DNA of 64,000 bases from a candidate division TA06 bacterium 32_111 (GCA_001508335.1 LGFX01000002.1:11179-75178); one strand, 5' to 3'. Shown: positions 6,154-35,144, counted from the first letter of the stretch. Notes: generated by a model not told the origin, from the letters alone. Numbers and translations: made by a program.

Positions 6154-9100
6154 ATGAAAAAGGTTTTAAGTTTAACTTTTTTACTTTTCTTTCTTTCCAT
6201 CTTTCCATACAGGTTGAACCTTGAAAATGATAAAAAAAGTTTTGAAGTTCAGTTTAAACCTTTCGGTAAAAAGTTCATTTTCAACTATGATAAGAATTTT
6301 CTTTTGATACATCAAAAGGATATAGAAATTGAAAAGTTAAAGTTTTTAACACTATCTTTGGGATACCAATTCATAGATGTTGTAAACGATGATCCTTCCT
6401 GTGCTAAAGTAAAAAATATTATAGACTCCATTAAAAGTATAAAAAAAGTTACCGCTATAATACTTATAGGTGATGAAAATAGGATAAATCCATACAGAGG
6501 TTTTTTCAATCCTTACACTTTAAAAAGTTTCCCTTCAGATCTATACTTTTCAAATCCTTTTGTGGATTCCTCTTTTGTAATAATCTCAAGGATACCAGTT
6601 TCAAATCAGGAACAGTTTGACATTTTTGTTGAAAAGTTGAAAAATTTCCTTTCAGATAGTTCAAATTTTGAATTCGTTTTCACAGCACCTTTTTACGACA
6701 ACAACAAAGACTCCACTGAAGATTACCTATACTTTACATATCCATATTTTATAAACAGAGTTTTGAAAGGAAAAATTTATGGTGAGACCAACTCTCCCTT
6801 TCCAAAATACACATACACATACGAAAAATTACCTGACTCTTTACTCTTCCCCTATTACAACTGGATATACGAATTGAGCAGTTTAAACTTAAAGGACAAA
6901 AATTTTATATTCACATACAGGGGGCATGGGAATCCAATATCTTCCGTTATGCCTGATTTTTCTTTAAACAATATTCAATATTTGAATTTTTCAAAAAATG
7001 GGATATTTCTATTCTTCTCCTGTCTTATGGGAAATTTCGATAAACTGATATCAGGTTACGAAAGATCTTTTTCAGAATCACTTTTAGTTTCCGAAAAGAA
7101 CGCTATTCTCACCATTTCCTCATCATCAGAAACATTTTACCAGTACAACAACTATATGATGAACAAATTTTTCGATTTTTTAGATGACAACTCTTTCAAA
7201 CTTGAAACAACTGAAAAGGAAACATTATTTTTAGACCTTTACAGAAAACTTATTTTCTCTTTTATGAACTATGCCGGGTACAACGATTATTCAGTTTCAC
7301 AGGTTCTCTCATACAATATTTTCGGTTTTCCAATTTTGAATCTTAAAAAAAATCCATCTTCAAAACCTTTCTCTTTTAAAGAGAGTATAGACATATCTGA
7401 CTCTATTTTAACAATAGAAATTTTAAGACCCTGTAAAATCAATATCTTTTCAAAGGAGAGAATTATAGATACCTTCAATTTTAACAACGAAACAACATTC
7501 TATTACAAACTTTTCAACATAAAACCAAACTCTTTCTATTACATATCTTCATATTTAAATGGAGTTCTCTTCGTTGATTCGTTTTTTGTTAAAAACGATA
7601 TACTCTCTATTGACACTTTTTTCTTTTCAGATAACTCTGGTAACTCTAACCGACTTATAGAGGAGGGAGAACCTATCCAAATATTTTTTAAAACAAATAA
7701 AAACTCTTATTCCAATGTTGATATTTTTTCAACCGATTGTGAGATAGTTGAAGGGGTGATTCTCGATGGAGAGTTTTTTAAAACAACTGTAAAAACTTTA
7801 AAGGGTGCTTATAATTTAAAGTTAACAATTTCAATAGATTCTTCAAACTTCTATTTTGTTTTTCCTGTAAACAGGTTCAGAATTGTTATCGATTCTATGA
7901 ACTGTCAAGAAACATCGATATTTTACAAGGATGAGGATTATCAGTTTGGAGTATCTGTTTCCTCTTTCGGTATTTTTCCACAGGAAAAATTAAAGTTAAA
8001 ATTCATAGAGAAAAACTATTCTGTCAGTATTGATAGTATAATATTAAATACTCCCTTTGAACATAATATTTTATGGAACTACTTTAGATTTTTTGCCGAT
8101 ACAAACTTTATAAAAGTTGTATACTCGAATGGATTTATTTATGATACTATAACCTATAAAGTTTTTACAACAAAAAGACATTCACTCTTTTTATATGATC
8201 CTTTGAACAACTATCAGAATTCAGATTTTGTTTCATTTTTAAAAGATTCTTTGGATATATCTTTAACCTTATCAGATAAAATTGATTCAACCTTAACCTA
8301 TTCTTCCTACATTTTCTCCTTTGGTCTCTATCCAAAATTACACCATATAACCTCCGAAGAATCTAATTTAATAGAGAATTTAGCATCAAGAAATGTCCCC
8401 CTTCTTGTTGAGGGTGGAGATGTTTTTGGTTATGATAGAGAGGGAATAAGGATAATGGAATTATTCAATATTAACAAATCTTTCGATGGGAATACCCTTT
8501 ACAAAGGAACGGTTTTAAATCTAACTCCCCTTAACATTGATCTTCTTTACGATACAACCTCAAACTACATGGATTACTATGAGACTCCACAGCCTTTGCT
8601 TTCATTTTCAAACAGATATTATGGTTCAATAAAAAATAACAGGATAGCCCAATCTCCACTTCTTAAATATTTTAAACACATTGATTTGAATCTTTTGTAT
8701 TACTTCTACACTATCTTTCTTTTAGATTTTGAGGAAGGTGTATCCTTCAAGGAAACTATTGATATTTCAACGAATCAGAGTTTAGAAATTTTCTCAACAG
8801 TTAAAAATCCACAGATTCTTTTATGTGAATTTCCAGATAACCTTATAGATTCAGTAAAATTTGAAGATGGAAGGGCAATAAAAGGTTTAGGGAAAAAATT
8901 TGTTAAAATTTTTGTTAAAAGGAACTCCCCGCCTTTCCAGACGAAAATATTTTTTTCAACCGGTTTCAAAGAATACCCTTTATACTTAAAATACACTCCT
9001 TACATTCAGACAAAAAACAAGAAGTTTAAAAAGAAGGAAAACATCTCAGAGTTAAAAGATAAAATCTATTTTGACAAGATTGGAAGAAGGGTTTTCAAAA

Positions 9101-9165
9101 ATCAACTTAAAAGTTTAAACATCTATTTTACAGAGGATAAAAAACTTTTGATTTTAAAAAAATAG
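6154..9165 (+). CDS. large secreted gingipain-like (peptidase C25, clan CD) cysteine-peptidase candidate with a T9SS-type C-terminal domain
   Basis: Signal peptide MKKVLSLTFLLFFLSIFP. His-Gly and Cys motifs (FTYRGHGNPISS ... IFLFFSCLMGNFD) are spaced about 40 aa apart, as in caspase-fold C25/C11 peptidases. The C-terminal KIYFDKIGRRVFKNQ...LLILKK resembles a Por_Secre_tail. Confidence 0.5.
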   Translation: MKKVLSLTFLLFFLSIFPYRLNLENDKKSFEVQFKPFGKKFIFNYDKNFLLIHQKDIEIEKLKFLTLSLGYQFIDVVNDDPSCAKVKNIIDSIKSIKKVTAIILIGDENRINPYRGFFNPYTLKSFPSDLYFSNPFVDSSFVIISRIPVSNQEQFDIFVEKLKNFLSDSSNFEFVFTAPFYDNNKDSTEDYLYFTYPYFINRVLKGKIYGETNSPFPKYTYTYEKLPDSLLFPYYNWIYELSSLNLKDKNFIFTYRGHGNPISSVMPDFSLNNIQYLNFSKNGIFLFFSCLMGNFDKLISGYERSFSESLLVSEKNAILTISSSSETFYQYNNYMMNKFFDFLDDNSFKLETTEKETLFLDLYRKLIFSFMNYAGYNDYSVSQVLSYNIFGFPILNLKKNPSSKPFSFKESIDISDSILTIEILRPCKINIFSKERIIDTFNFNNETTFYYKLFNIKPNSFYYISSYLNGVLFVDSFFVKNDILSIDTFFFSDNSGNSNRLIEEGEPIQIFFKTNKNSYSNVDIFSTDCEIVEGVILDGEFFKTTVKTLKGAYNLKLTISIDSSNFYFVFPVNRFRIVIDSMNCQETSIFYKDEDYQFGVSVSSFGIFPQEKLKLKFIEKNYSVSIDSIILNTPFEHNILWNYFRFFADTNFIKVVYSNGFIYDTITYKVFTTKRHSLFLYDPLNNYQNSDFVSFLKDSLDISLTLSDKIDSTLTYSSYIFSFGLYPKLHHITSEESNLIENLASRNVPLLVEGGDVFGYDREGIRIMELFNINKSFDGNTLYKGTVLNLTPLNIDLLYDTTSNYMDYYETPQPLLSFSNRYYGSIKNNRIAQSPLLKYFKHIDLNLLYYFYTIFLLDFEEGVSFKETIDISTNQSLEIFSTVKNPQILLCEFPDNLIDSVKFEDGRAIKGLGKKFVKIFVKRNSPPFQTKIFFSTGFKEYPLYLKYTPYIQTKNKKFKKKENISELKDKIYFDKIGRRVFKNQLKSLNIYFTEDKKLLILKK

Positions 9166-9200: not shown

Positions 9201-10241
9201 ATGATGTTAATTTTTCTAATTCTTTTTTTTCTAACCTCTGAAAACATCTCAGGATACACTATAAAAAAAAGTGATCTTGTTACCTATTATGATACATTAT
9301 CCTTGGAAAGTAAAGTTTCACAACTTTTTATAGTTTACACAAACAACTTCAATTTTTCAAATTATTATCCTGGAGGGGTAATACCTTCAAAAAATCTTTT
9401 AAAGAGTATTTACTATAAAAAAATTCCTTTTGAGAACCTTTTAAAAGATTTTCCAATTCCACCTTTTGTTTGTATAGATCAGGAAGGAGGGAAAGTTGAT
9501 AGGTTATCATTTATAGAAAAAACTCCTTCTTTGAATTCGATATTCCATAACTATGAAAAAAGGGAGGAAATTTTAAAGATAATGGTTTTAAATGAGAAAA
9601 AACTTGGAATAAATTTAAACCTTTCACCTGTTCTCGATCTTTCATACCAGAAAAACTCGATGATGAGAAGAACGGATAGAAACATTCTTTCAACAACCGA
9701 TTCTATTAAAGATTTCATAGATACTTACATATCTTTACACAAAAGCAAAAAAATTCTAAACTGCATAAAACATTTCCCTGGTTATGGAGAAACATTTGAT
9801 AACTCCGATGTAGTGATACCAAAATATAAAGGAGATAAAAAACTTTTTGAAGAGAATTTGGATCTTTTTTACCATTTTTTTGATAAGGTTTCATTCGTTA
9901 TGGTTGCAAACATAGTTTACCCATTTCTCGATTCTGTTCCTGCGGTAAGGTCAAAAAATGTTGTAAAACTTGTTAGGGATAAAAATGAAAAGATTGTCAT
10001 TGTAGCGGATGATATAGCAGCAAAATCAAACAAAAACCCTTACTTGGTTCTGAAAGAATCTTTTAAAAGTGGGGTTGATATCTTTATACTTATGGATGAT
10101 ACACTTTTCGAATTTATGGTAGATTCACTTTCTTTCTGGATTTCAAAAGGAGAAATTGAAGAAAAGGAACTTAATGAAAAACTTTTCAGAATATTTCTTA
10201 AAAAAGAGTATCTTTTTAATACGCTCAAAAAGAAAAGTTAA
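9201..10241 (+). CDS. nagZ: glycoside hydrolase family 3 N-terminal domain protein (NagZ-like beta-N-acetylhexosaminidase), with N-terminal signal/TM
   Basis: Motifs PFVCIDQEGGKVDRL, NLNLSPVLDL and KHFPGYGETFDNSD match the GH3/NagZ catalytic region. Confidence 0.6.
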   Translation: MMLIFLILFFLTSENISGYTIKKSDLVTYYDTLSLESKVSQLFIVYTNNFNFSNYYPGGVIPSKNLLKSIYYKKIPFENLLKDFPIPPFVCIDQEGGKVDRLSFIEKTPSLNSIFHNYEKREEILKIMVLNEKKLGINLNLSPVLDLSYQKNSMMRRTDRNILSTTDSIKDFIDTYISLHKSKKILNCIKHFPGYGETFDNSDVVIPKYKGDKKLFEENLDLFYHFFDKVSFVMVANIVYPFLDSVPAVRSKNVVKLVRDKNEKIVIVADDIAAKSNKNPYLVLKESFKSGVDIFILMDDTLFEFMVDSLSFWISKGEIEEKELNEKLFRIFLKKEYLFNTLKKKS

Positions 10242-10939
10242 ATTCCAACTATTGAAACATCAGGAACAAACTGAGTCATTATATCTCTAAACTTTTTCAA
10301 CTCTTCAGGTTTGTAGGGAACTACACCGGTAAAATCATCATTCAAAGTTTTCCAATTCCTAAACTGCTGGATAACATACTTTTTTGCACCTGTTATCAAA
10401 ACACCTATCTCTCTAACATCCTCAAGAGTTACAAGTTGTGGAACTATAGTTGTTCTGAACTCATAATCAATCTTTGAGTTCAAAAGTATTTCAACAGAAC
10501 TTTTTATCCTTTCAAAATCAATATTTACTCCACATGCTACAACATACTTTGAAGGTGATGTTTTTATATCCATCGCTACGTAATCAATAAGATTTTCGGA
10601 AAGAAGTTTCTTTAGAATTTGTGGATTGTAACCGTTAGTATCAACTTTTACTGGAAGTTTAAATTTTTCTCTTAAGTTTGAAATGAAACCTATAATATCT
10701 TCACTTAAAAGTGGTTCACCACCTGTTATAGATATACCTTCGATGAAATTTTTTCTCTCATCAATAAGAGAAAATAACCTCTCCTCCGTTATAGTCTGTA
10801 AAGAGTCAAAATCATCAACAAGTTCTTTGTTATGACAGAAAGGACATCTGAAGTTACATCCAGCCAAAAAAATGGTTGATGAAACTTTGTCTGGATAATC
10901 AAGTGTGGTAATACCTTGAAAACCTTTTACTTGAACCAT
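10238..10939 (-). CDS. nrdG: anaerobic ribonucleoside-triphosphate reductase activating protein (radical SAM)
   Basis: CNFRCPFCHN radical-SAM cysteine motif; position immediately downstream of nrdD. Confidence 0.85.
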   Translation of the reverse strand: MVQVKGFQGITTLDYPDKVSSTIFLAGCNFRCPFCHNKELVDDFDSLQTITEERLFSLIDERKNFIEGISITGGEPLLSEDIIGFISNLREKFKLPVKVDTNGYNPQILKKLLSENLIDYVAMDIKTSPSKYVVACGVNIDFERIKSSVEILLNSKIDYEFRTTIVPQLVTLEDVREIGVLITGAKKYVIQQFRNWKTLNDDFTGVVPYKPEELKKFRDIMTQFVPDVSIVGI

Positions 10940-11140: not shown

Positions 11141-13285
11141 CTATTCTCCTTTTTCAACATATATTTCAACGCCAAACTTTTCGAGTTCTTGGGGTGAATG
11201 ATCGTAAGGGCAGAATTTATGTTCTCCCGGGATATAACCATGAACAGGACATATTGAAAATGTTGGGGTTATTGTGAAATAAGGAAGATGAAAATTCTCA
11301 GCGATCTTCTTAACGAGTTTTTTACATGCACTGATAGAGTAAATCCTTTCTCCGATAAAACCATGTAAAACTGTTCCTCCGGTGTATTGACACTGAAGTT
11401 CATCCTGTAATTTCAGAGCCTCAAAAAGATCATCGGTGAAACCCACTGGAAGTTGAGTTGAGTTTGTATAGTAGGGAACATCTTTACCTGCTGTTATTAT
11501 ATCTGGATAACGTTTTTTATCCTCTTTAGCCAACCTGTAAGATGTTCCTTCTGCTGGTGATGCCTCAAGGTTGTAAAGATTTCCAGTTTCATCTGTGAAC
11601 TTTTCAAGTTTTTCTCTCATAAATTTTAAAGTTTCAAGAGCAAACTCTCTTCCATTTTTTTGCCCTATATTCTCTCCAACAAGCATCAGTGCTGCTTCAT
11701 TCATCCCCACAAGTCCAATAGTTGAAAAATGGTTTGCCCAATATTTCCCATTCATTTTTTTTACATCTTCAAGATAAACTTTGGAGTAAGGATAAAGGTT
11801 ATCCTCTGTAAACTTTTCAAGAATCTTTCTCTTTATTTCAAGTGATTCTTTAGCTAATTGCATCATCCTTTCAAGTTTTGTGAAAAATTCTGATTTGCTT
11901 TTACTGTTGTATGCGATCCTTGGAATATTTATGGTAACAACACCAACTGAACCTGTCATAGGATTTGCTCCAAAAAGACCACCACTCCTTTTTGGATGTT
12001 TATCGATTTTTTCTTCATTAACATTATTTTTGTTTGCGAGTAAGTTCAGTTGTATCTTTTCACTCCTTTTTTTCAACTCCCTGTTATCAAGTCTCAACCT
12101 ACAACACATACTCCTTGCATCTGAAGGATCCATATCAGAGTTTATAAAGTTACTGAAATATGGAATGCCATACTTCGCCGTCATCTCCCATATCTTTTCA
12201 AGGTTTGGATTGTTCCAATCGAAATTCTTTGTGATATTGTATGTCGGAATTGGAAATGTGAAAATTCTACCCTTAGCATCACCTTCCATCATCACCTCGG
12301 CAAAAGCCTTGTTGAACATATCCATTTCCTGCTGGAACTCTTTGTATGTCTCGTTCATCCTCTTTCCACCTATTATTACTCTTTCATCCTTCAAAGTTTC
12401 CGGACAAACAAGATCCATTGTAACATTGGTGAAAGGTGTTTGAAATCCAACCCTTGTTGGGACATTAACGTTGAAAACGAACTCCTGCATAGCCTGTTTA
12501 ACATCATCGTATGTTAACTCATCATACCTTATGAATGGGGAAAGGTATGTATCAAAATTTGAAAATGCCTGTGCCCCTGCTGCCTCTCCCTGTAATGTGT
12601 AAAAAAAGTTTACTATCTGTCCTAATGCTGTCCTGAAATGTTTCGCTGGTTTTGATTCTATCTTTCCAGTTACTCCACCAAGACCTTTTAAAAGTAAAAG
12701 TTCAAGGTCCCATCCACAACAGTAAACTGAAAGCATCCCAAGATCATGTATGTGTAGATCACCTTCCCTATGTGCATTTGCAACCTCTTTTGGATAAACT
12801 TTTTCAAGCCAATAGAGTGCCGATATCGTCGATGAAATATGGTTGTTCAAACCTTGCAAAGAGTAAGACATATTCGAATTCTCGTTAACCCTCCAGTCCA
12901 ATTTTTCAATGTATTCATCCATCAAATCTATACTATCCTTTATCAACTCTTTGCTTTTTCTTAACTGGTTATGCTGCTCTCTGTAAAGTATATAGGCTTT
13001 CGCAGTTTTTGCGTGCCCAGATTCTATGAGCATCTTTTCAACAAGATCCTGAACATTCTCAACAGTTGGTATCCTTCCATCCTTATACAAAACCTCAAGA
13101 ACAGCAACTATCTGGTTTGTAATCTTTTTTGCTGGTTGTATATCATCTCCACCAACAGCCTTTACAGCTTTAAAGATAGCTTCAGTTATCTTGTTTTCAT
13201 CGAATTTTTCTACTCTACCATCTCTTTTTCTTATATATTCGACTTTTGACACTCCTCCTCCATTTTTTTTAGAAAATATTATCAC
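11141..13285 (-). CDS. nrdD: anaerobic ribonucleoside-triphosphate reductase (class III), catalytic polypeptide ending at a TAG before the glycyl-radical domain
   Basis: 714-aa ORF with ATP-cone start (KVEYIRKRDGRVEKFDENKI) and the long NrdD core. The likely true start is the GTG at 13252, preceded by GGAGGAGGA. The C-terminus has a Zn-site-like CPVH...CPYDH and then stops at the TAG at 11141-11143. Confidence 0.9.
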   Translation of the reverse strand: MIIFSKKNGGGVSKVEYIRKRDGRVEKFDENKITEAIFKAVKAVGGDDIQPAKKITNQIVAVLEVLYKDGRIPTVENVQDLVEKMLIESGHAKTAKAYILYREQHNQLRKSKELIKDSIDLMDEYIEKLDWRVNENSNMSYSLQGLNNHISSTISALYWLEKVYPKEVANAHREGDLHIHDLGMLSVYCCGWDLELLLLKGLGGVTGKIESKPAKHFRTALGQIVNFFYTLQGEAAGAQAFSNFDTYLSPFIRYDELTYDDVKQAMQEFVFNVNVPTRVGFQTPFTNVTMDLVCPETLKDERVIIGGKRMNETYKEFQQEMDMFNKAFAEVMMEGDAKGRIFTFPIPTYNITKNFDWNNPNLEKIWEMTAKYGIPYFSNFINSDMDPSDARSMCCRLRLDNRELKKRSEKIQLNLLANKNNVNEEKIDKHPKRSGGLFGANPMTGSVGVVTINIPRIAYNSKSKSEFFTKLERMMQLAKESLEIKRKILEKFTEDNLYPYSKVYLEDVKKMNGKYWANHFSTIGLVGMNEAALMLVGENIGQKNGREFALETLKFMREKLEKFTDETGNLYNLEASPAEGTSYRLAKEDKKRYPDIITAGKDVPYYTNSTQLPVGFTDDLFEALKLQDELQCQYTGGTVLHGFIGERIYSISACKKLVKKIAENFHLPYFTITPTFSICPVHGYIPGEHKFCPYDHSPQELEKFGVEIYVEKGE

Positions 13286-13304
13286 TCAACTTTAAAATGT
13301 CAAT

Positions 13305-13330
13305 AGACTCCACTAAATATAGTGGAGTCT
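13305..13330. promoter_or_regulatory. perfect 11-bp inverted repeat AGACTCCACTA-AATA-TAGTGGAGTCT abutting the nrdD promoter (TTGACA-16-TAATAT); NrdR-box-like operator and/or hairpin terminator
   Basis: The palindrome is seen directly. The half-site cCACtAaA resembles the NrdR box consensus acaCwAtA. It sits immediately upstream of the -35 element of nrdD and about 50 nt downstream of the stop of the upstream lipoprotein gene. Confidence 0.4.
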
Positions 13331-13380
13331 TATTTTGTAAAATACAATATGTTGAAAAATAGTTGAACTTATACTTTCGA

Positions 13381-14334
13381 TTATTTTACAAACATTTCAG
13401 CAACCTTTAAAGGTATTTCGAAGTCTAAAGAATCAAGTGTTGTAAGTTCTAAAAAATCGATAAGATAGATTTTTCCAACATTTGTTGAGATTACAATTTT
13501 CCCTTTGAAGTATTCTATATCTGAAGGTGAGGGAATATTTAAGGTGTTGAGAATGTTTAAATCTTTATCAAGTATATAGAGTTTGCTGAAGATATCCAAC
13601 AAAAAAATTTTATCCTCAACAACTTTTACTTTTCCAAGATAGTTTTCAAAACTCAAAGAATCAAGTTCTACACCATTTTTTATCTTTTTTATTTTGCCTT
13701 TTATATCATCGTAGTTTCCAACAAGTGAAACATATATATTGTTTTCACCATCAATATCAAGGTAGGATGGATTTGAACCTTTTGCAAGATCGGTTTCAAC
13801 ATTTTTAAAATCTTCTGATATTTTGTATATATGTCCTGTCAGTGATGTGTTGTTTGAACCAACATACAGGAAGCCATCTTTATAAACTATCTCTTGTGGT
13901 GCGGTCAAAGTTAGGGAGTCAACTATAGAAAAAGTAGTTTTTTCAATCTTTAAAAGAGAGTTGGAAAGCCAATCCGTAACAAAAATGTAATCTTTACTAC
14001 CTGATATATAGGCAGGAGAACTCAAATCTCCCCTTTCTATCTGTGATATTCTTTTTCCACTAAGATCATACTTTTCAATAGATGGAACTCCACCAAAACC
14101 AGAATTGGTTATGTAAATATTACTTTCATCCACAAAAATATCTGTCGGTGCTGTTCCGGTTGTCAAAAGTGGAGTGGTTTCAAGATTGAATAGAGAATCA
14201 ACGATGTAAACCGCCTCCTTCTCCCAATCAAGGATGTAAACAGAGTTCTCAAAAGGCTCCTTTTTTAAAAGTGAACAGGAAATTGAAAAAATTAAAACAA
14301 ACAAAAGTGAAGAGATCAAAAAGTCTTTTTTCAT
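13381..14334 (-). CDS. lipoprotein (lipobox LIFSISC), beta-rich/propeller-like, translationally coupled to the BtuB-like receptor; candidate BtuG-like B12-binding surface lipoprotein
   Basis: Signal peptide MKKDFLISSLLFVLIFSISCS. Its start codon overlaps the stop of the upstream gene (TAATG). Repetitive beta-strand-like segments. The BtuG assignment is inference from context only. Confidence 0.5.
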   Translation of the reverse strand: MKKDFLISSLLFVLIFSISCSLLKKEPFENSVYILDWEKEAVYIVDSLFNLETTPLLTTGTAPTDIFVDESNIYITNSGFGGVPSIEKYDLSGKRISQIERGDLSSPAYISGSKDYIFVTDWLSNSLLKIEKTTFSIVDSLTLTAPQEIVYKDGFLYVGSNNTSLTGHIYKISEDFKNVETDLAKGSNPSYLDIDGENNIYVSLVGNYDDIKGKIKKIKNGVELDSLSFENYLGKVKVVEDKIFLLDIFSKLYILDKDLNILNTLNIPSPSDIEYFKGKIVISTNVGKIYLIDFLELTTLDSLDFEIPLKVAEMFVK

Positions 14335-16220
14335 TAAACCTCCATCTTCAGGTTAAAAGTTACTTTTCTTCCTTCCTTTATGTATCCTTTTACACTCTCA
14401 ATCCTCAGATCGAAAGGATTGATGATCGAAAATGTTAAGACAAAATTTTTCAAATTGTATTCAACACCTGTTTCATCTAAGGATATATAAAATGGCAAAT
14501 ACTTTGTGTTCTCATTGTTCAAAAATCTGATTGACCTGTACTCAAGGTAGAGAAAGAAATTGAAATTTTTAAATGTATAGAATGCAAAATAGTTTAGATT
14601 TAGAGGTGATGTGTAAAGAAGTAATTTGAACCTTTCAAGGATCATAGGAGAGATCGTTAAAGTTAAAGAGTTGTTTATATTAAAAAATTTTTTGTTATAC
14701 TCAAAACCTATGTATGGGTTATAAGTTTTCAAAATATTTTGAGGAGAGTAAACACCATTTATATTAATCCATCTTATGAGATCTTTATAATAGTTAAAAC
14801 CTGCAAAAAACTTTTTTTCTTCATCTGAAAAAGTTAAAGAGTATGAAAAAATCTTTTCGTTTAAAAGATTCTCATTACCTTTAGAAAATATATCACCAAC
14901 CCAGTACAACTCGTTGAATGTAGGTCTTCTCGTTGAGATTTTAATAGAGTTATAAAAAATATAATCTTTTAAGTAAAATTCTTTTGAAACGGTAAAACTG
15001 TAAACATAATTTTTTTTCAAAAAATCTTCATTAAAATTTGAAGAGAAGGAAAAAGAGTTTGAAAATTTTAAGGACCCTAAAATAAGGTTAGAAAACAAAC
15101 CGTAAAAGTATTCGTTGACATTTGAAACTTTTGTTGATTTTATAAAATTTTTCTGAAAGAATGTTCCAACTCCACTCTTATTCTTTTCAAATTTTATTAT
15201 GATATTATCTGAAAAAGTTTTTGAAGTATCGAAAACTCTTAAATCTTTGTTGTCATAAATATAGGTGTAAATGTTGTTAGAATAAAAAATTTTTAGAAAC
15301 TTTGAAAGATTAAAAGTTAAATTAAAAATTCTGTTGCCTTCAAATATTGTAGAGTTGAAAAATCTATGTCCCTGAATTCCCGGATCACCTGTTTGGCTCT
15401 TTCCATATATATATAGTATTGAAAAAAAATCTCTTTTAAAATAAAAGTAATTACTAAATCCATTTTGGTATGAGTTTTTTAGTTTTTCTCCATAAGGTAA
15501 AACCAAATCATTCTTGTCAAAATAAAATTTTCCAAATTTAAAACCTTTAAAAGATAGGGTCAAATCAATATCGTAAGATTTTTTATCATCAAAAGTTATA
15601 TTTATTTTTGTTTTATCACTTTTTTCAATCCGAAAATCTATTCCAGATGAAAAAAGGTTTTCTCCAAGAAAGTTGGATCTGTCATTTTTATAAAAATTTA
15701 AGGAAGAGAAAAGGTTTTTGGGAAATAAAGATATTGGAACCATTCTTGATTGCTGGTTTACAATTGGAACACCATCTATGGACAAAATGTTATCCTCATT
15801 TAAAAGTCCATCAACAGAAATAATATAACTCCTGTTGTACTCTCTCAAAGTTACCTGTGGTATTTTTTTTATTATGGAAAACAGATCTTTCTCTTCGATC
15901 TTAATATTTAAAATATCACTTTCTATCCTTTCATTCTCTACAACAAGTGGTTTATACATAAAAGGTTCAATTTCAAGATAGATACTCATCGTATCATCTG
16001 TAACCTTAAATCTTTTTTCCTTATAACCCAATGAGGATAAACTTATCTCTTTTCCCTTCTGGATTTCAAATGGTGTTTTAAGTTGGTAAGTTTTTCCATC
16101 ATAGGAAACTTTTACAAAAACAATACTATCATAGGTGGATTTATCGTAAACATATATATATGCTGAAAATATTTTCAGAAAAAGGGAAAAAATAAATAAA
16201 AATACTAATATTTTTTTCAT
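14334..16220 (-). CDS. TonB-dependent outer-membrane receptor-like protein (BtuB-like) under a cobalamin riboswitch
   Basis: ORF 14334..16250. The likely start is the Met at 16220 (MKKILVFLFIFSLFLKIFSA signal) with SD AAGGA. A plug-like motif (IPQVTLREYNRSYIISVDG...ILSIDGVPIVNQ) resembles the TonB-dependent receptor plug IRG...NRVLVLIDGVP. The C-terminal approximately 400 aa show beta-barrel-like alternating aromatics. Confidence 0.6.
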   Translation of the reverse strand: MKKILVFLFIFSLFLKIFSAYIYVYDKSTYDSIVFVKVSYDGKTYQLKTPFEIQKGKEISLSSLGYKEKRFKVTDDTMSIYLEIEPFMYKPLVVENERIESDILNIKIEEKDLFSIIKKIPQVTLREYNRSYIISVDGLLNEDNILSIDGVPIVNQQSRMVPISLFPKNLFSSLNFYKNDRSNFLGENLFSSGIDFRIEKSDKTKINITFDDKKSYDIDLTLSFKGFKFGKFYFDKNDLVLPYGEKLKNSYQNGFSNYFYFKRDFFSILYIYGKSQTGDPGIQGHRFFNSTIFEGNRIFNLTFNLSKFLKIFYSNNIYTYIYDNKDLRVFDTSKTFSDNIIIKFEKNKSGVGTFFQKNFIKSTKVSNVNEYFYGLFSNLILGSLKFSNSFSFSSNFNEDFLKKNYVYSFTVSKEFYLKDYIFYNSIKISTRRPTFNELYWVGDIFSKGNENLLNEKIFSYSLTFSDEEKKFFAGFNYYKDLIRWININGVYSPQNILKTYNPYIGFEYNKKFFNINNSLTLTISPMILERFKLLLYTSPLNLNYFAFYTFKNFNFFLYLEYRSIRFLNNENTKYLPFYISLDETGVEYNLKNFVLTFSIINPFDLRIESVKGYIKEGRKVTFNLKMEV

Positions 16221-16223
16221 ATC

Positions 16224-16409
16224 CATCCTTGTCAGGACGGACCCTGTCAAAGCAGGTTCCGTTATCAGGCAGGTTTCCTGGCTTGCGGCTTAAACCTCCT
16301 GCCACCTTCCCCTTTTACGGGTGGTATAAGGCATTCGTATCCGCTTACAGTTGCTTGACAGCAGTGGATTTTCACCACTTTCCCTTTTACCTCAAAAGAG
16401 CACCTGACA
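16224..16409 (-). promoter_or_regulatory. cobalamin (AdoCbl) riboswitch in the 5' leader of the BtuB-like gene
   Basis: The minus-strand RNA contains AAAAGGGAAAGUGGUGAAAAUCCACUGCUGUCAAGCAACUGUAAGCGG. This matches the conserved cobalamin riboswitch core AAaGGGAA..GGUGaAAauCC..GCuG.C..GCAACuGUAAgcGG. It also contains the B12 box AAGCCAGGAAACCUGCC. The element is a GC-rich island in AT-rich DNA. A promoter (TTGATT-15-TATAAT) lies at 16415-16441. The 3' end overlaps the SD of the downstream gene. Confidence 0.85.
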
Positions 16410-16474
16410 CATTCATTATATACAAATTAAAAAAAAATCAAGAAATTTTCAAATTCTTTAAAAGAAGTTTAATA

Positions 16475-16503
16475 TTGACAATTTCTCTATTCTTTATATA
16501 CTA
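16475..16503 (+). promoter_or_regulatory. candidate sigma-70-type promoter for the rpsP operon (TTGACA, 16-17 nt spacer, TATACT), divergent from the riboswitch promoter
   Basis: TTGACA is at 16475-16480 and a -10-like hexamer at about 16497-16503, 30 nt upstream of the rpsP SD GGAGGT. Confidence 0.4.
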
Positions 16504-16536
16504 TAAAATTCTAAAAATACAAACCATGGAGGTATA

Positions 16537-16812
16537 ATGGTTAATATACATTTGAAAAGGATAGGAAAAAAGAAAACTCTATGTTATAGGGTTGTTGTTG
16601 CTGATTCAAGGTTTCCAAGAGATGGTAGATTCATCGACAGTATTGGTTCATACGACCCAAAGGGCAAAAATTTAACAAAGCTCGATCTTATGAAGTACGA
16701 TGCATGGATAAAAAAGGGAGCAAAACCTACAAAAAGAGTTGAATCTATAATAAAACTTTACAGAGAAAATAAATTGGAAGGAAAGGTAGAAAAAGATGAA
16801 ATCACTTCTTGA
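16537..16812 (+). CDS. rpsP: 30S ribosomal protein S16
   Basis: MVNIHLKRIGKKKTLCYRVVVADSRFPRDGRFIDSIGSYDP is the canonical S16 N-terminus. Confidence 0.95.
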   Translation: MVNIHLKRIGKKKTLCYRVVVADSRFPRDGRFIDSIGSYDPKGKNLTKLDLMKYDAWIKKGAKPTKRVESIIKLYRENKLEGKVEKDEITS

Positions 16813-17026
16813 ATACATAGTAAAGTCACTCGTAGATAATCCAGAAAAGGTGAAAATACATGTTTGTGAAGGGAAAAAGACAACACTCTATGAGATAGAG
16901 ATTGATAAGGAAGATATTGGAAAAGTTATCGGCAAAGATGGAACTACACTTGATGCAATAAACACACTCCTTTCCGTATCTTCTGTTAAAAATAACAGAA
17001 AATCCGTTCTGGAAATAATTGACTGA
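16796..17026 (+). CDS. KH-domain RNA-binding protein (UPF0109/YlqC family)
   Basis: 76 aa with the KH motif IGKVIGKDGTTL; conserved position between rpsP and rimM. Confidence 0.85.
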   Translation: MKSLLEYIVKSLVDNPEKVKIHVCEGKKTTLYEIEIDKEDIGKVIGKDGTTLDAINTLLSVSSVKNNRKSVLEIID

Positions 17027-17516
17027 TATGTTTTTTAAAGTTGGAAAGATATTGAAACCACACGGTCTTAAGGGAAATCTAAAAGTCCATCTATATGATA
17101 AGGATAGAGAAAATCAGATCCCTGAATTTTTTTTTATAAATGGTGAAAAAATCTTTGTTGAGAATTTTGGTCGTATAGGTTCAAACTTCGTTATAAAGTT
17201 TAAAGGTGTAGACAACAGAACCGATGCTGAAAAGTTGAAAGATCTTTATCTTGAGGTTGAGGAAAAAGATCTGGTTAAACTCAAAGATAACCAATACCAT
17301 TCACATAAAATTGTAGGCTCAAAAATTATTTCTAAAGATGGAAAAGAGATCGGAAAAGTTGTAAATATAATTTTCCTTGAAAATGGAGATGTTTTAGAAG
17401 TAGATATTAAAGGCAAAAAGGAGACAATTCTTTTCAAAAAGGATTTTTTTTCTAAGATAGATCCTGATAGTAAAATCTTACAGTTAAAATACGAAGAAGA
17501 ATTCTATGCGTTTTAG
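17019..17516 (+). CDS. rimM: ribosome maturation factor RimM
   Basis: The VGKILKPHGLKGNLKV start is typical of RimM; operon context. Confidence 0.85.
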   Translation: MTDMFFKVGKILKPHGLKGNLKVHLYDKDRENQIPEFFFINGEKIFVENFGRIGSNFVIKFKGVDNRTDAEKLKDLYLEVEEKDLVKLKDNQYHSHKIVGSKIISKDGKEIGKVVNIIFLENGDVLEVDIKGKKETILFKKDFFSKIDPDSKILQLKYEEEFYAF

Positions 17517-18249
17517 TATAATAACTCTTTTTAGGGAGTTGATAGAACCGTTCTTTGAAACTTCTCTTTTAAAGAGAGCGATAGAGAAAAAACTGATCTC
17601 TGTTGAAATAATAAACCTTAGGGATTTTGGTGTTGGGAAACATAGAAAGGTTGATGATTACCCTTACGGTCTTTCATCTGGAATGATACTGATGTGCGAA
17701 CCTCTAAAAAAAGCTTTGGATTCTATAGAAGGTGAAAACAAATACGTTGTTTTAACCTCACCTTCAGGTGTTCTTTTAAAACAGGATCTCGTTGAAACCA
17801 ATCTATCAAAAAAAGAACATATTGTGATAATAGCAGGAAGGTACAAAGGTATAGATCAGAGGTTTATTGATAAATATGTTGATCTTGAAATCTCCATAGG
17901 TGATTTCATCTTACAGGGTGGAGAGATTCCAGCACTAATAATAGTAGAAACTGTTAGTAGATTTGTAAAAGGAGTTTTACATTCTATAGATTCTGCTGAA
18001 AATGATTCCTTTTCAAAAGGTTTTTTAGATTCACCTAAATACACGAGACCAAAAGTTTTTGAAGGAATGGAGGTGCCTGAAATTTTACTTTCAGGTAACC
18101 ATAAAAAGATTGAAGAGTATGAGGAGTACCAATCTTTAAAGATCACATACAAAAGAAGACCTGATCTCTTGAAAAATAAGGACTTGACAAAAAGACAAAA
18201 AGAAATTATAAATAAAATAAAATCGGAGGAAAAGAATGGCAAAACTTAA
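17506..18249 (+). CDS. trmD: tRNA (guanine37-N1)-methyltransferase
   Basis: MRFSIITLFRELIEPFF...SLLKRAIEKKL and the SPOUT fold motifs (ISIGDFILQGGEIPALII); operon context. Confidence 0.9.
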   Translation: MRFSIITLFRELIEPFFETSLLKRAIEKKLISVEIINLRDFGVGKHRKVDDYPYGLSSGMILMCEPLKKALDSIEGENKYVVLTSPSGVLLKQDLVETNLSKKEHIVIIAGRYKGIDQRFIDKYVDLEISIGDFILQGGEIPALIIVETVSRFVKGVLHSIDSAENDSFSKGFLDSPKYTRPKVFEGMEVPEILLSGNHKKIEEYEEYQSLKITYKRRPDLLKNKDLTKRQKEIINKIKSEEKNGKT

Positions 18250-18589
18250 TATCGACAGAATAAAAAAAGATTTTGAGAAGTCTTTTGATAAAAGTGAAAA
18301 ATACGATTTCAATATCGGAGATACTGTTGATGTATCTGTAAAGATAGAAGAGAGTGGAAAAACGAGAACACAAAAGTTCAGAGGTATAGTTATTGCAAGA
18401 AGGGGAACGTCTGTAGGACAGACCGTAACGGTTAGAAAAATTTCTCAGGGAATAGGTGTTGAAAGAATTTTCCCGATAAACTCTCCAAATGTTTCCGATA
18501 TAAAAGTTGTAAAGAAAAGCAAAGTCAGAAGAGCAAAATTAAACTATATGAGAGGTAGAACAGGAAAGGCTGCCACAAAAGTAGAATGA
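18236..18589 (+). CDS. rplS: 50S ribosomal protein L19
   Basis: Sequence (GDTVDVSVKIEESGKTRTQKFRGIVIARRG...) is typical of L19. Confidence 0.95.
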   Translation: MAKLNIDRIKKDFEKSFDKSEKYDFNIGDTVDVSVKIEESGKTRTQKFRGIVIARRGTSVGQTVTVRKISQGIGVERIFPINSPNVSDIKVVKKSKVRRAKLNYMRGRTGKAATKVE

Positions 18590-22070: not shown

Positions 22071-25000
22071 ATGAGAAATTTAATACCTTCATTTATAGTT
22101 GAGAAGATAAATCTAAACCTAACGAAAGGTAATTTTTTTGGTTATGTGATAAGTGGGGATATTGAGAATTTTACTCCCATGGTTGAAAACCTTATGGAGA
22201 AGGAGAAAGAGGGAGCTGAAATATTAGGAACCATTTTAAACAAAACTCTTGGAAATGTTACAGATACAATCTATAAGAATGATGGATTCATAACTACATT
22301 CTCTGGTGATGCTTTCACCGCTATCTTTTTTGAAGATAAATCTCCAACAGAGATCCTTCAGGTTTCAAAACAGATACTTGAAATTTTTTCAAACTTAAAC
22401 AAAAAAAGTAACATAAAACTCAACATCAGGCTTGGGATCTCTTCAGGATTTATAGAATGGCGAATATTCAACAACGATAAATCAATATACTATTTTAAAG
22501 GGAACGGAATAAATTCCGCGATAAGAATACAACATACAGATGAATCGTCGGTGATAAAAGTTGATGTTTCACTTATAGATAAAATTGATAGGAATCTTGT
22601 TAAAAAGATAAAAGGGGGATATTTTATTGTTGATGAGAGTAAGATAGAGATTCCAAAAAATAATTGTGAGAAGAGCCAGATAATCCCATTCAAAAGTTTA
22701 AATTCAAAATTTTTTCCTGAAATTATATCCGATTTAAAGATAGAGGGAGAGTTTAGAAAGGTTATACCAATCTTTATAAATTTTCCCTTTGATCTTGAAG
22801 ATGAAAAGTTAAATATTCTATTAAAAACTCTTTGTGAAAATACAAAAAAATATAACGCCTATCTGAATAAAGTAGAATTTGGTGATAAGGGCGGAATGAT
22901 ACTTTTGATCTTTGGAGCCCCATACACTCAGGAAGATATGGTTGAGAGGGCTATACTATGTTCAACAGATATATTTAACCATTTGAATGAGAATCATATA
23001 AAAGTATCGGTTGGGCTTGATTACGGAACAACATACTCAGGCTTTATCGGTAGTTCATTTTGGAAAGAGTATACTGTTATAGGAGATATAGTTAACACCT
23101 CAGCAAGAATTGCAACAACAAACAGTTGCAAGGTGATGGTTTCAGAGAGATTAGCATGCGAAACAAAAAGGGTCATTTTCTCTGATCAGGTTGAGTTATC
23201 TTTGAAAGGAAAGGATAAAAAGATAAAAGTGCTTTCCGTAAAGGGAATAACACAGAAAAAAAGTTTCGATTTTATCTCCCCTTTCATCGAAAGAAAAAGT
23301 GTTAGTGAAAAAATTGAAAAATTTTTAAAAACTTTAGAGGATAAAAAAGTTGCTGGTTTAGTTAATATCTTTGGCGAAAGCGGAACAGGAAAGACAAGAA
23401 TCTCTTTCGAGTTATTTTCAAAGTTAGGTTATGAAATTTTTTATACAACTGCAGACCCAATCCTGAAAGAACCTTTGATGGCTATCAAAAATCTCTTTTC
23501 CAACATAGTTGGTTTTAACACTTACGATAAAGAATCGAAAAGAAGAGAGAGCATAGAGAAGTTTTCAAAATCTTTTGAAAAATTTTACGATATTGAGTAT
23601 GAGAGATTGTATTCTTTTCTTTTATACTTTTTCAACCATGAGGAAACATATCTTATAAAAAACCTTCCAGCGAGAGAAAAACTTGAGGGGACTTTTTTTA
23701 CATTAAAAAACATTCTATTAAAAAATATCGAGAACAAAAAAGCGGTTTTTATTTTCGACGATTTCATGTGGGTGGATCAGGAAACTGTCGATTTCGTAAA
23801 TTACCTTTTAAGAGACCAGTATGAATTTAAGAGTGTTCCGTTCATTTTTTTATACAGGGAAGAAAATGATAATATAAGAAGGTTGAAAAAGTTAGGATGT
23901 GAGTTGATAGTTACAAAACTTGAAAATTTCACATTTGAAAATGTAAGAACTTTTCTTCAGAATTTTTTCAAAACAGATGTTTCAAAGGAACTTCTCAATA
24001 CTCTATGGCAAAAGAGTGAAGGTAACCCTTTGTTCCTTGAACAACTATCAGTCCACCTTGTCAACAATGGACTTCTTACAAACAGAAATGGAGTGATCAG
24101 TTTAAAAGAATCCAACTATGAGATACCTTCAAACATAGATAGGTTGATACTTTCAAGACTCGATTCACTTTCAGCAATCACAAGGGATGGAGTTCAAAAG
24201 GCATCCGTAATCGGAAAAGAGTTTGAAATACTTTTACTTTCATTCCTTGTCGAAAAAAAAGATTTAGATAGAATACTTTCAGAATCTGAAAAAAATAAAA
24301 TAATAACTCTCCTTTCCGAAAAGAGTGCATCTTTCAGACATATTCTTCTCTATGAGATAACTTACAGGATGCAGTTCAAAAAAAATGTTGAAAGGTTACA
24401 TAAAAAAATAGGGGAACTCTATGAATCCCTTTTCAAAGATAACCTTATAAATTACTATGAAACACTTTACTACCATTTTTCAAAAGGTAATGTTAAAAAT
24501 AAAGCCATTTTCTATCTGAAAAAATCTATTGAAAAGGATATCTCATCCTTCTCAAATGAAAACGCCATAAAACTTATAGAAAAATATCTTGAATACAGGA
24601 TAAACAAAGATGAAAGAATATATTTTACCATTAAAAAGGCTGAAATCCTTTCACATATAGGGAGGTATAAAGATTCAATAAAAGAGTATAAAAAAATTCT
24701 CAAAGAGAAAAAACTTAAATTAAAAACCAAATCTTTAGTTTTAAAGGGAATAGGCAACTCATTATGGGCTATGGGTGAATACAAAAAAGCTTTAAATCAA
24801 TACAAAGAGAGTTTAAAAATAGTTAAAAATTTGAGAGATCAAAAGGAGATTTCAGAGATATACGAAAAAATTGGTTTAGTTTATTACAACAAGGGGGATT
24901 ATTCAAAATCTAAAGAGATGTTTAACACAGCGTTGAAATTCGCAAAGAGAGATGTTGAAAAGAGATTTTCAATATACTCCAATCTTGGACTTTTACTATA

Positions 25001-25739
25001 CAGACAGGGTAACTATAAAAAAGCTATGGAATATTACACAAGATCACTCGATTATGCAAAGAAAAACAATAACCTTTCAGATCAGGCACTCTTCAATTTA
25101 AGAATAGGTTTAATACATTATGAAAAACAGGAATACGAAAAAGCCTTAAAAAACTATTTCGTCTCTTTAGATCTTAACAGAAAAACAGGAAACAGAAGAA
25201 ATGAGGCGGTAACTCTGGGTAACATTGGAACAGTTTACAACGAGATGGGTGAAACTGAGAAAGCTTTAAATTATCTTTTTAAAGCTTTACAGATAGATAA
25301 AGAGATCAACAATCTTGAAAATGAATCTATAATTTTAGGAAATATCGCAAACATATATGGTGCTAAAAATGATTGGGAATCATCCTTGAAATATTATAAA
25401 GAGGCATTGGATGTTGATAGAAAAATAGGAAGTAAATGGTCAGAAGCGATAGATCTTGGAAATATAGGACAACTTTTCAAATTACAAAAAAAATATAAGG
25501 ATGCTGACGAGTATTTTAAAAAATGTATAAAGATAATCAGGGAGATGAATGCGAGATACCCTTTAAGTCATTTTTTGTATCACAGAGCACTCCTTCTTTT
25601 TGAAATGAAAAATTTTCCTCTGTCTTTAAAACTCACCAAAGAATCTTTAAAAATTGCAAAGGAGTTAAAAAAGGAAAACTTGATAAAAAGTTGTGAAGAA
25701 CTGATAAAAAAAATGGAGGATAAGAATGTCAAAATGTGA
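22071..25739 (+). CDS. multidomain signalling protein: two class III nucleotidyl-cyclase-homology domains, a P-loop STAND/AAA NTPase (GESGTGKT), and C-terminal TPR repeats
   Basis: Cyclase-like motifs FSGDAFTAIFF and GLDYGTTYSGFIGS...VIGDIVNTSARI. Walker A NIFGESGTGKTRISF. About 10 TPR-like repeats in the C-terminal 450 aa. The start is uncertain because no SD precedes the first ATG. Confidence 0.6.
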   Translation: MRNLIPSFIVEKINLNLTKGNFFGYVISGDIENFTPMVENLMEKEKEGAEILGTILNKTLGNVTDTIYKNDGFITTFSGDAFTAIFFEDKSPTEILQVSKQILEIFSNLNKKSNIKLNIRLGISSGFIEWRIFNNDKSIYYFKGNGINSAIRIQHTDESSVIKVDVSLIDKIDRNLVKKIKGGYFIVDESKIEIPKNNCEKSQIIPFKSLNSKFFPEIISDLKIEGEFRKVIPIFINFPFDLEDEKLNILLKTLCENTKKYNAYLNKVEFGDKGGMILLIFGAPYTQEDMVERAILCSTDIFNHLNENHIKVSVGLDYGTTYSGFIGSSFWKEYTVIGDIVNTSARIATTNSCKVMVSERLACETKRVIFSDQVELSLKGKDKKIKVLSVKGITQKKSFDFISPFIERKSVSEKIEKFLKTLEDKKVAGLVNIFGESGTGKTRISFELFSKLGYEIFYTTADPILKEPLMAIKNLFSNIVGFNTYDKESKRRESIEKFSKSFEKFYDIEYERLYSFLLYFFNHEETYLIKNLPAREKLEGTFFTLKNILLKNIENKKAVFIFDDFMWVDQETVDFVNYLLRDQYEFKSVPFIFLYREENDNIRRLKKLGCELIVTKLENFTFENVRTFLQNFFKTDVSKELLNTLWQKSEGNPLFLEQLSVHLVNNGLLTNRNGVISLKESNYEIPSNIDRLILSRLDSLSAITRDGVQKASVIGKEFEILLLSFLVEKKDLDRILSESEKNKIITLLSEKSASFRHILLYEITYRMQFKKNVERLHKKIGELYESLFKDNLINYYETLYYHFSKGNVKNKAIFYLKKSIEKDISSFSNENAIKLIEKYLEYRINKDERIYFTIKKAEILSHIGRYKDSIKEYKKILKEKKLKLKTKSLVLKGIGNSLWAMGEYKKALNQYKESLKIVKNLRDQKEISEIYEKIGLVYYNKGDYSKSKEMFNTALKFAKRDVEKRFSIYSNLGLLLYRQGNYKKAMEYYTRSLDYAKKNNNLSDQALFNLRIGLIHYEKQEYEKALKNYFVSLDLNRKTGNRRNEAVTLGNIGTVYNEMGETEKALNYLFKALQIDKEINNLENESIILGNIANIYGAKNDWESSLKYYKEALDVDRKIGSKWSEAIDLGNIGQLFKLQKKYKDADEYFKKCIKIIREMNARYPLSHFLYHRALLLFEMKNFPLSLKLTKESLKIAKELKKENLIKSCEELIKKMEDKNVKM

Positions 25740-34327: not shown

Positions 34328-35144
34328 AATTTTGATCCTTTCAATTTTATTTTTTATTCTTCTAAACTTCTACTCATGTAAAGATACAAATGGGAATAAA
34401 AAAGTTTCTGTAGTATCAACCATCTATCCTGTTAAAGCTTTTCTTGAGTCAATTCTTGATACGAGCATTCAAAATTCGAGCGTTCTTGACAAAAATATTG
34501 ATCCCCACATAGCAGAAATTACACCCTCGAGTTTTAAAAAAATCTCTCAATCAAAAATTTTTATCTCTCTCGGTTCCGGGATAGAATTTGAAGAGAAAAA
34601 TAAAAATCAGTTTTTAATTGAAGCAAAAAATTCTATAAAGATAGACCTCGCAAAAACTCTCGAAGAAATAGAGGATCCTCACATTTGGATATCGCTTAAA
34701 AATCTAAAAATTTTTTCAAAGATCCTGTATGACACATTATCGAACTATAACATATTAGATAAAACTACTCTTGATCAAAGGATAGATATTTTAAACAGAA
34801 AAATAAATGCTTTAGAGGATTCTATAAAAAGAATGATAAAAGAAAAAGGAATAAGAAAAATATTTACCGATCATAACGCTTTTTTCTATTTTGGAAAAGA
34901 ATTCAATTTAGAGTTGAGAACGATATCAGATAACGAGGATGAAGTTTCAGTAAAGGATCTCAAAAATGTTCAGGATGAGATCTCAAAAGAAATGGTAAAG
35001 ATTTTTTTCTATACCAACCCATCATCAGAAAACTATGCCAAAAATTTTGAAAGTGAAATTAAAGTAAAAAGTTTGTATATAAATCCACTTGAAGACCCTG
35101 TAAAAAATTTTGAAAAGATTTTAACTTTTTTTAAAAATTTATGA
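34317..35144 (+). CDS. metal (Zn/Mn) ABC transporter substrate-binding lipoprotein, ZnuA/TroA-like
   Basis: Lipobox LLNFYSC; periplasmic metal-binding fold pattern; followed by ABC ATPase and permease genes. Confidence 0.6.
   Translation: MKNKILILSILFFILLNFYSCKDTNGNKKVSVVSTIYPVKAFLESILDTSIQNSSVLDKNIDPHIAEITPSSFKKISQSKIFISLGSGIEFEEKNKNQFLIEAKNSIKIDLAKTLEEIEDPHIWISLKNLKIFSKILYDTLSNYNILDKTTLDQRIDILNRKINALEDSIKRMIKEKGIRKIFTDHNAFFYFGKEFNLELRTISDNEDEVSVKDLKNVQDEISKEMVKIFFYTNPSSENYAKNFESEIKVKSLYINPLEDPVKNFEKILTFFKNL

Follow-up and report, generated by a model that had tools for sequence, protein, structure and literature searches.

A riboswitch-controlled BtuB-like transporter and BtuG-like lipoprotein form a probable corrinoid uptake operon in candidate division WOR-3

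Does vitamin B12 capture by a lipoprotein-capped transporter, known from Bacteroides, extend beyond the Bacteroidota? The question is raised by a locus in a 64,000-nucleotide (nt) stretch from a candidate division TA06 bacterium 32_111 (GCA_001508335.1, LGFX01000002.1:11179-75178; this whole stretch is referred to below as the window, and positions are counted from its first letter). On its minus strand, a cobalamin riboswitch precedes genes for a 628-amino-acid (aa) protein resembling TonB-dependent receptors and a 317-aa lipoprotein. An initial annotation, made from the DNA alone, likened this arrangement to the BtuB-BtuG pairs of Bacteroidota. The BtuB-BtuG mechanism is established in Bacteroides (PMC6143338, PMC10404256), and BtuG has been stated to be exclusive to the Bacteroidetes, in a search that covered 313 human-gut genomes only (Wexler et al., PMC6143338). 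The literature that we searched yielded nothing on BtuG outside the Bacteroidota or on B12 uptake in candidate division WOR-3. The evidence set out below indicates that the locus is probably a two-gene operon for outer-membrane corrinoid (vitamin B12) uptake in WOR-3 (Caldifarciminota), repressed by the cobalamin riboswitch. The coordinates of its features are collected in Table 1.

The riboswitch itself is virtually certain. The covariance model RF00174 matches the leader over its full length (model positions 1-189) with 96.2 bits (E = 1e-22; gathering score, 31.5 bits), in agreement with the near-consensus aptamer that had been claimed, and the aptamer core and B12 box that had been quoted are located at 16341-16388 (AAAAGGGAAAGUGGUGAAAAUCCACUGCUGUCAAGCAACUGUAAGCGG) and 16268-16284 (AAGCCAGGAAACCUGCC). 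The leader is also the GC-rich island in AT-rich DNA that was originally described, with 48% G+C over 16222-16422, against 28% in both coding regions and 31.5% in the window. Six consensus pairs of the RNAalifold structure carry compensatory changes on both sides among nine aligned WOR-3 leaders. The promoter-like site TTGATT-15-TATAAT is present just upstream of the aptamer; it is missing from the consensus promoter scan because its spacer is 15 nt and the scan requires 16-18. The position of TATAAT and of a TTGAC-type -35 element is kept across the aligned leaders of related loci.

The route from aptamer to gene expression differs from the one first proposed, in which the 3′ end of the aptamer overlapped the Shine-Dalgarno sequence of the transporter gene. 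The aptamer match ends at 16251, so that there is no overlap, and the Shine-Dalgarno sequence (AAGGAUGG, 16223-16230) lies in a separate 9-bp hairpin, whose 3′ arm carries it and stops one base short of the AUG. All nine pairs of this hairpin are identical across the nine leaders, the loop varying in length, and the hairpin is present in both the minimum-free-energy and the centroid structures (71-nt region, z = -3.5 relative to shuffled sequences). The invariance of this hairpin, together with the lack of any terminator-like site on the minus strand of the leader in the terminator scan, indicates translational control. By analogy with E. coli btuB, the leader would repress translation by sequestering the Shine-Dalgarno sequence when B12 is bound. 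Between the aptamer and the sequestering hairpin is a small conserved hairpin with one compensatory pair (UA to CG) and a loop of variable sequence. A kissing-loop partner for it was considered and rejected: the loop has no complementarity to the aptamer and shows no covariation by eye. A 102-aa open reading frame (16229-16537, plus strand) that runs antisense over the riboswitch and promoter region is almost certainly not a real gene.

The protein encoded directly behind the leader is, with high confidence, a divergent BtuB-type corrinoid transporter. It is laid out as a signal peptide (residues 1-19), an N-terminal β-sandwich (about 19-82), a disordered linker (84-105), a plug and a barrel of about 22 strands. 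The AlphaFold2 model, made with the family alignment, has a predicted local distance difference test score (pLDDT) of 73 and a predicted template-modelling score (pTM) of 0.71, with about 22-23 long strands after the plug. The plug-like motif picked out in the initial annotation (ISVDG...SIDGVPIV) falls within a weak Pfam Plug match (aa 112-182, E = 0.13), and the C-terminal region, which had been described as β-barrel-like, is modelled as a barrel; the model superposes on BtuB with template-modelling (TM) scores of 0.65-0.74.

The resemblance of this transporter is to BtuB in particular. In a Foldseek search of the PDB with the model, which aligns over the BtuB plug, the top 16 matches are all BtuB; the best is E. 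coli BtuB (1nqe, E = 4e-23), and BtuB1, BtuB2 and BtuB3 of B. thetaiotaomicron are among them. A profile of the transporter family, run against PDB sequences, ranks B. thetaiotaomicron BtuB first (6e-13 and 3.5e-12) and E. coli BtuB next (3e-6, in the plug region). Its matches at E < 0.01 are to BtuB only, the best other TonB-dependent transporter being the colicin I receptor Cir (E = 0.03). These BtuB-only matches, and the cobalamin riboswitch found at 15 of 15 intact loci (below), establish a specific relation to B12 transporters. Sequence identity to BtuB is only 14%, so the substrate pocket cannot be read from the sequence.

An extra N-terminal domain sets the transporter apart from its closest structural matches. 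This β-sandwich of about 65 aa is CarboxypepD_reg-like: CarbopepD_reg_2 is matched weakly by four of 11 family members, and a Fermentibacteria homologue carries a CarboxypepD_reg domain. The linker that follows contains a conserved hydrophobic-V-V-E-x-E-R motif (KPLVVENER, aa 91-99) that resembles TonB boxes. Neither E. coli BtuB (PDB 1NQE) nor B. thetaiotaomicron BtuB3 has the N-terminal extension; their plugs start near the N terminus (near residue 32 in BtuB3, and likewise in E. coli BtuB), which leaves no room for such a domain. E. coli btuB shares with the window system a cobalamin riboswitch that acts on translation of a TonB-dependent B12 transporter, an action that is predicted here, but its product has no partner lipoprotein.

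The second gene is joined closely to the first. As the initial annotation had it, the two open reading frames meet in a TAATG stop/start overlap, in which they share one base (14334), and a GGAGG sits 5 nt upstream of the lipoprotein start. The lipobox likewise stands: MKKDFLISSLLFVLIFSIS-C20 (FSIS-C20) fits the PROSITE lipobox pattern, and Cys20 is invariant in all relatives. The same annotation had found no recognizable domain in the lipoprotein. This is not borne out, as the protein is a seven-bladed propeller of the standard YVTN/YncE kind with a remote relationship to the BtuG family, and an undescribed fold is ruled out. The AlphaFold2 model (pLDDT 85.8, pTM 0.83) shows seven blades closed by the N- and C-terminal strands.

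The best Foldseek matches of this model, at TM scores of 0.72-0.75, are BtuG1, BtuG2, BtuG3 and the BtuG homologue 3DSM, and the archaeal YVTN propeller 1l0q ties with the BtuGs (0.74). Sequence profiles depend on their breadth. With a profile of WOR-3 lipoproteins only, the best PDB match is BtuG3 (E = 0.0065), BtuG chains make up nine of 22 weak matches and 1l0q is absent; with a broader profile that includes distant relatives, 1l0q (9.5e-31) outscores BtuG1 (7e-20). The fold is thus that of a generic YVTN/YncE propeller group that also includes BtuG, and structure alone cannot prove a role in B12 binding.

The strongest argument for the pair is its conservation at related loci. Relatives comprise 14 transporter loci from a scan of species-representative genomes and two from contig look-ups (L001-L016); L011 is truncated at the transporter gene's 5′ end, and the other 15 are intact there. 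RF00174 matches directly upstream of the transporter gene in all 15. On every contig that extends past the transporter gene, a gene for a propeller protein with a lipobox (312-349 aa) comes next and abuts or overlaps it. The hosts are WOR-3 (L001-L008), Hydrothermota (L009), Fermentibacteria (L010, L012 and L014-L016) and one Bacteroidales genome (L013). Identity to the window proteins drops to about 23-27% among the transporters and to about 17-24% among the lipoproteins. Because the two genes stay together under the same riboswitch despite this deep divergence, the pair is very likely a functional unit in corrinoid uptake. We accordingly regard the lipoprotein as a likely functional partner in that process.

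A profile search of 1.84 billion representative proteins gave 19,815 matches at E ≤ 0.001, 36 of them below 1e-30, and was swamped by generic YVTN repeats. Many further proteins of 325-350 aa with a lipobox and a single propeller surfaced in it (P0062, P0068, P0070, P0075, P0094 and P0158); their matches to DUF5074 or YNCE are weak and, as in the WOR-3 proteins, the E-G-x-F loop described below is missing.

The host lineage bears on whether an outer-membrane system is to be expected. The genome had been judged Thermotogae-like or deep-branching in its core; the gene order on which this was based (rpsP, KH, rimM, trmD, rplS) is indeed found at 16537-18589 on the plus strand, and it does not identify the lineage. 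A Thermotogae origin is rejected, since close homologues of both proteins all come from metagenome-assembled candidate division WOR-3 genomes. In the NCBI taxonomy, WOR-3 and 'Candidatus Hydrothermota' together form the phylum Caldifarciminota. A cultured WOR-3 strain possesses inner and outer membranes (PMC12285271), which makes an outer-membrane transporter plausible.

We compared the locus with the three BtuB-BtuG loci of B. thetaiotaomicron (loci 1-3; PDB 8BLW, 8BMX and 8P97/8P98; Wexler 2018, PMC6143338; Abellon-Ruiz 2023, PMC10404256). In both, a cobalamin riboswitch lies upstream of a BtuB-type gene that is followed directly by the gene for a seven-bladed propeller lipoprotein of about 320-350 aa. 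The differences are that the host here is WOR-3/Caldifarciminota and not a member of the Bacteroidota, that the operon consists of the transporter and lipoprotein genes only, without btuFCD, btuH or btuJ, and that the WOR-3 lipoprotein lacks a passing DUF5074 score, the E-G-x-F loop, a second 6-aa insertion that only the Bacteroidales proteins have, and a clear export signal. The likeness to BtuB-BtuG drawn in the initial annotation therefore survives in part. The BtuB-like plug and barrel, the propeller partner and the conserved arrangement support it, whereas the DUF5074 threshold and the E-G-x-F loop are both missed, so that 'BtuG-like' is a justified description and 'a BtuG' is not. DUF5074 scores of relatives fall on both sides of the cut-off (27.2 bits), with 21.1 bits for WOR-3 L006 and 40.6 bits for Bacteroidales L013. 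Searched against a 13-sequence database, the L013 lipoprotein finds those of L005, L006 and L008 at 4e-5 to 6e-6 and the window protein at 0.04.

At the level of single residues the outcome is mixed. BtuG2 contacts corrinoids through Glu55, Gly56, Phe58, Gln93, Asn107, Ser131, Trp149, Trp194, Ser195 and Gln219; Glu55, Gly56 and Phe58 belong to the E-G-x-F loop, and Phe58 stacks on the lower ligand (bioRxiv 10.1101/2024.02.16.580637). For comparison, BtuG3 residues 1-269 and part of BtuG1 were rebuilt from HMMER alignments and aligned with the lipoprotein family, BtuG3 numbering being that of BtuG2 minus 11 (valid for 10 of the 11 listed residues). In this family alignment, only Bacteroidales proteins have the E-G-x-F loop and a 6-residue insertion that precedes a 'GD' motif. 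Elsewhere, Gln219 corresponds to an invariant Asn188 in the window lipoprotein, Ser131 to Ser106 and Gln93 to Thr64; Asn107 aligns to Ser78, adjoining the invariant Asn77; Trp194, which is missing in BtuG1 as well, aligns to Asn161; and Trp149 is one column off Trp122. Equating Trp122 with Trp194 was rejected as probably one blade off, since the full-length alignment sets Trp122 beside Trp149. The contact positions that agree are mostly generic YVTN-blade positions.

Several results weigh against a B12-capturing BtuB-BtuG-like system at this locus. The window lipoprotein has no DUF5074 (PF16819) match at E ≤ 1, and its only Pfam match, to YNCE, is below threshold (20.2 bits against a cut-off of 27.1; E = 4e-4). 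Lipoproteins of WOR-3, Hydrothermota and Fermentibacteria, as well as other metagenomic relatives, do not have the E-G-x-F loop, and the segment that starts at Cys20 of the window protein, CSLLKKEPFE, holds no clear Bacteroidota-type export signal. In the transporter, the Plug (PF07715) score of 13.2 bits is below the 23.9-bit cut-off and there is no Pfam match to the barrel family PF00593; Plug is matched by all 11 transporter family members (best E = 6e-8), and the distant relatives L009 and L012 pass PF00593. No tonB, exbBD or btuFCD gene was seen in the 64-kb window, where open reading frames were inspected by eye and a subset was compared with Pfam. For the leader, we found no competing 'on' (anti-sequestering) structure.

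We propose the following course of events. When B12 is scarce, the ribosome-binding site would be open and the BtuB-like transporter translated, with the lipoprotein co-translated by way of the overlapping stop and start codons; B12 on the aptamer would favour the conserved hairpin beside the AUG and turn translation off. The lipid-anchored propeller would, like BtuG of Bacteroides, lie over the barrel opening on the extracellular side, where it could capture corrinoids and pass them to the transporter. TonB would then pull the plug, letting the corrinoid enter the periplasm. We lean only slightly towards the lipoprotein being a surface lid that binds B12 in the same manner as BtuG.

Surface exposure is uncertain because the residues after Cys20 contain no clear Bacteroidota-type export signal. 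That signal has been defined for Bacteroidota only (PMC6143338). The WOR-3 lipoproteins continue after the Cys with a segment of mixed charge (CSL(L/F)K(K/N)E), and those of L009 (CSEKEE) and L013 (CDEPE) are acidic. The lack of a clear acidic signal in the WOR-3 proteins, the missing E-G-x-F loop of the surface protein BtuG, and the absence of btuF from the operon, from within 6 kb in related loci and from the window open reading frames examined would all suit a different B12-uptake pair, in which the lipoprotein faces the periplasm and serves as a BtuF-like shuttle below the transporter, on the inner leaflet of the outer membrane or on the inner membrane. We consider this arrangement unlikely. 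The nearest characterized relatives and best structural matches of the lipoprotein are surface lids, and the same gene order occurs in the Bacteroidales locus, whose DUF5074 lipoprotein has the acidic CDEPE segment; moreover, we know of no seven-bladed propeller that acts as a periplasmic B12-binding protein.

A second possibility is that the lipoprotein, as a generic YncE/YVTN propeller, has no corrinoid-binding activity and is either a stabilizing or assembly partner or unrelated and merely co-transcribed. The fold and repeat motifs of the lipoprotein are common to YncE/YVTN seven-bladed propellers (PF21783; PDB 3VGZ, 1L0Q), but these are not lipoproteins encoded beside a riboswitch-controlled BtuB-like gene, and E. 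coli YncE is a soluble periplasmic protein that is not known to have a B12 role. Such a bystander or helper seems quite improbable, as adjacency or overlap with that gene is found in 15 of 15 loci across Caldifarciminota, Fermentibacterota and Bacteroidota and is kept while both proteins diverge to about 20-25% identity, which suggests a functional pair under selection; BtuG3 also tops the PDB sequence matches of the WOR-3-only profile.

Cobalamin riboswitches also control cobalt transporters in B12 producers, TonB-dependent nickel/cobalt transporters have been predicted by comparative genomics and the substrate pocket is unreadable at this distance from BtuB, but import of a non-corrinoid (cobalt, a cobalt chelate for B12 synthesis or another tetrapyrrole), with the riboswitch tuning precursor supply, is very improbable given that the best structural and sequence matches are to BtuB specifically and not to metal or siderophore transporters, that the partner lipoprotein resembles the B12-binding BtuG and that no cobalamin biosynthesis genes were seen among the window open reading frames inspected as above.

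Corrinoid uptake by a transporter-lipoprotein pair remains the preferred interpretation, and its parts have precedents. SusC/SusD-type transporters of Bacteroidota likewise have a carboxypeptidase-regulatory-like domain before the TonB box (here a TonB-box-like motif) and a lipoprotein gene directly downstream; they differ in that the partner here is a β-propeller and not the helical SusD, in that the 628 aa of the transporter correspond to the size of BtuB rather than to about 1000 aa, and in that a riboswitch is in control. The locus introduces no new principle: its riboswitch, its type of transporter and its pairing logic were each known before. What it does is take a known system into new phyla, and in a divergent form, in which the operon has two genes, the transporter an N-terminal extension and the lipoprotein no E-G-x-F loop.

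We tentatively suggest that the WOR-3, Hydrothermota and Fermentibacteria propellers, even without the E-G-x-F loop, may sit as lids on a BtuB-type transporter at the cell surface and represent a sister or older form of BtuG. In that case, TonB-dependent transporters with a lipoprotein cap would not be exclusive to the Bacteroidetes, contrary to what has been suggested, and these phyla would have a route for exposing lipoproteins at the surface without the Bacteroidota export signal. With no Phe to stack on the lower ligand, corrinoids would be held in another way, and this might alter selectivity among cobamides. Both WOR-3/Caldifarciminota and Fermentibacterota, for which many genomes were obtained from hot-spring and sediment samples, have kept the pair, and its presence there would put the origin of this form of B12 capture outside gut Bacteroidota. 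If confirmed, the operon would make available to biochemists a minimal version of the system, with just two genes, and divergent, possibly thermostable B12-binding scaffolds. It would also be evidence that corrinoids are scavenged from the surrounding community by these little-studied organisms.

Table 1. Features of the candidate corrinoid uptake operon and its leader in the window
Feature	Position	Strand	Basis
Promoter-like site TTGATT-15 nt-TATAAT, 5′ of the riboswitch	16415-16441	-	Read from sequence
Cobalamin riboswitch aptamer (RF00174), including peripheral P6 extension and B12 box	16251-16422	-	Rfam match and conservation
Small conserved hairpin CCUG-N6-CAGG, between aptamer and Shine-Dalgarno hairpin	16243-16256	-	Leader alignment and fold
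Shine-Dalgarno-sequestering hairpin, GUCCGUCCU / loop / AGGAUGGAU	16221-16242	-	Fold and conservation
BtuB-like TonB-dependent transporter, 628 aa	14334-16220 (ATG at 16220, stop at 14334)	-	AlphaFold2, Foldseek, family profile
BtuG-like lipoprotein, 317 aa (lipobox Cys20), seven-bladed YVTN/YncE-type β-propeller	13381-14334	-	Model and lipobox

Downstream of the operon lie nrdD (11141-13252, minus strand; Pfam NRDD, E = 1e-185) and a gene for a radical S-adenosylmethionine (SAM) activase (10238-10939, minus strand). NrdD is the anaerobic, B12-independent ribonucleotide reductase, and its likely true start is the GTG at 13252 (703 aa) and not that of the 714-aa open reading frame. Both genes follow the transporter/lipoprotein operon in eight of eight WOR-3 loci, across which NrdD identity is 79-96% as against 31-86% for the transporter. 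The stretch from the lipoprotein stop (13381) to nrdD contains two conserved palindromic boxes, TCAACATATTGTAT (13342-13355) and CCACTATATTTAGTGG (13310-13325), with centres 31 bp apart, and a conserved promoter (TTGACA-16-TAATAT, 13276-13303, minus strand) lies just downstream of both. We take the boxes to fit the NrdR operator pattern before nrdD-nrdG. With its own conserved promoter and NrdR-like boxes, nrdDG is apparently controlled separately, and its membership of the riboswitch regulon is unlikely. A palindrome at 13305-13330 was rejected as the intrinsic terminator of the operon: the scan reports it on the plus strand only, and distant loci keep just its 16-bp core (CCACTATATTTAGTGG here, ACACTAAATATAGTGT in those loci), which fits an NrdR operator, so that a DNA operator is likely rather than an RNA terminator.

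Some of the related loci have features of their own. L005 (DYMB01000001.1) was deposited as 'Acetofilamentum sp.', a genus of Bacteroidaceae; it has the WOR-3 gene order (tRNA, riboswitch, transporter, lipoprotein, nrdD) and an NrdD 87.5% identical to that of the window, and the label is probably a misclassification. At the Fermentibacteria-type loci L010, L012, L015 and L016 the Rfam match spans RF00174 model positions 45-169 only, and the gene after the lipoprotein encodes a conserved protein of about 780 aa; its C-terminal half holds GT4 glycosyltransferase domains, and Pfam assigns nothing to its N-terminal region. In Bacteroidales L013, a radical-SAM/SPASM protein gene (7900-8865, plus strand) comes after the riboswitch, BtuB and BtuG genes.

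Elsewhere in the window, an ATP-binding cassette transporter at 34317-36672 was considered as BtuFCD and rejected, as it is ZnuABC. A divergent rpsP promoter (TTGACA-16-TATACT) lies at 16475-16502 on the plus strand. The same strand encodes a 1003-aa secreted protein with a Peptidase_C25 (gingipain-family) domain (6154-9165) and a 1222-aa protein in which many TPR repeats accompany an adenylate/guanylate cyclase domain and an AAA_16 ATPase domain (22071-25739).

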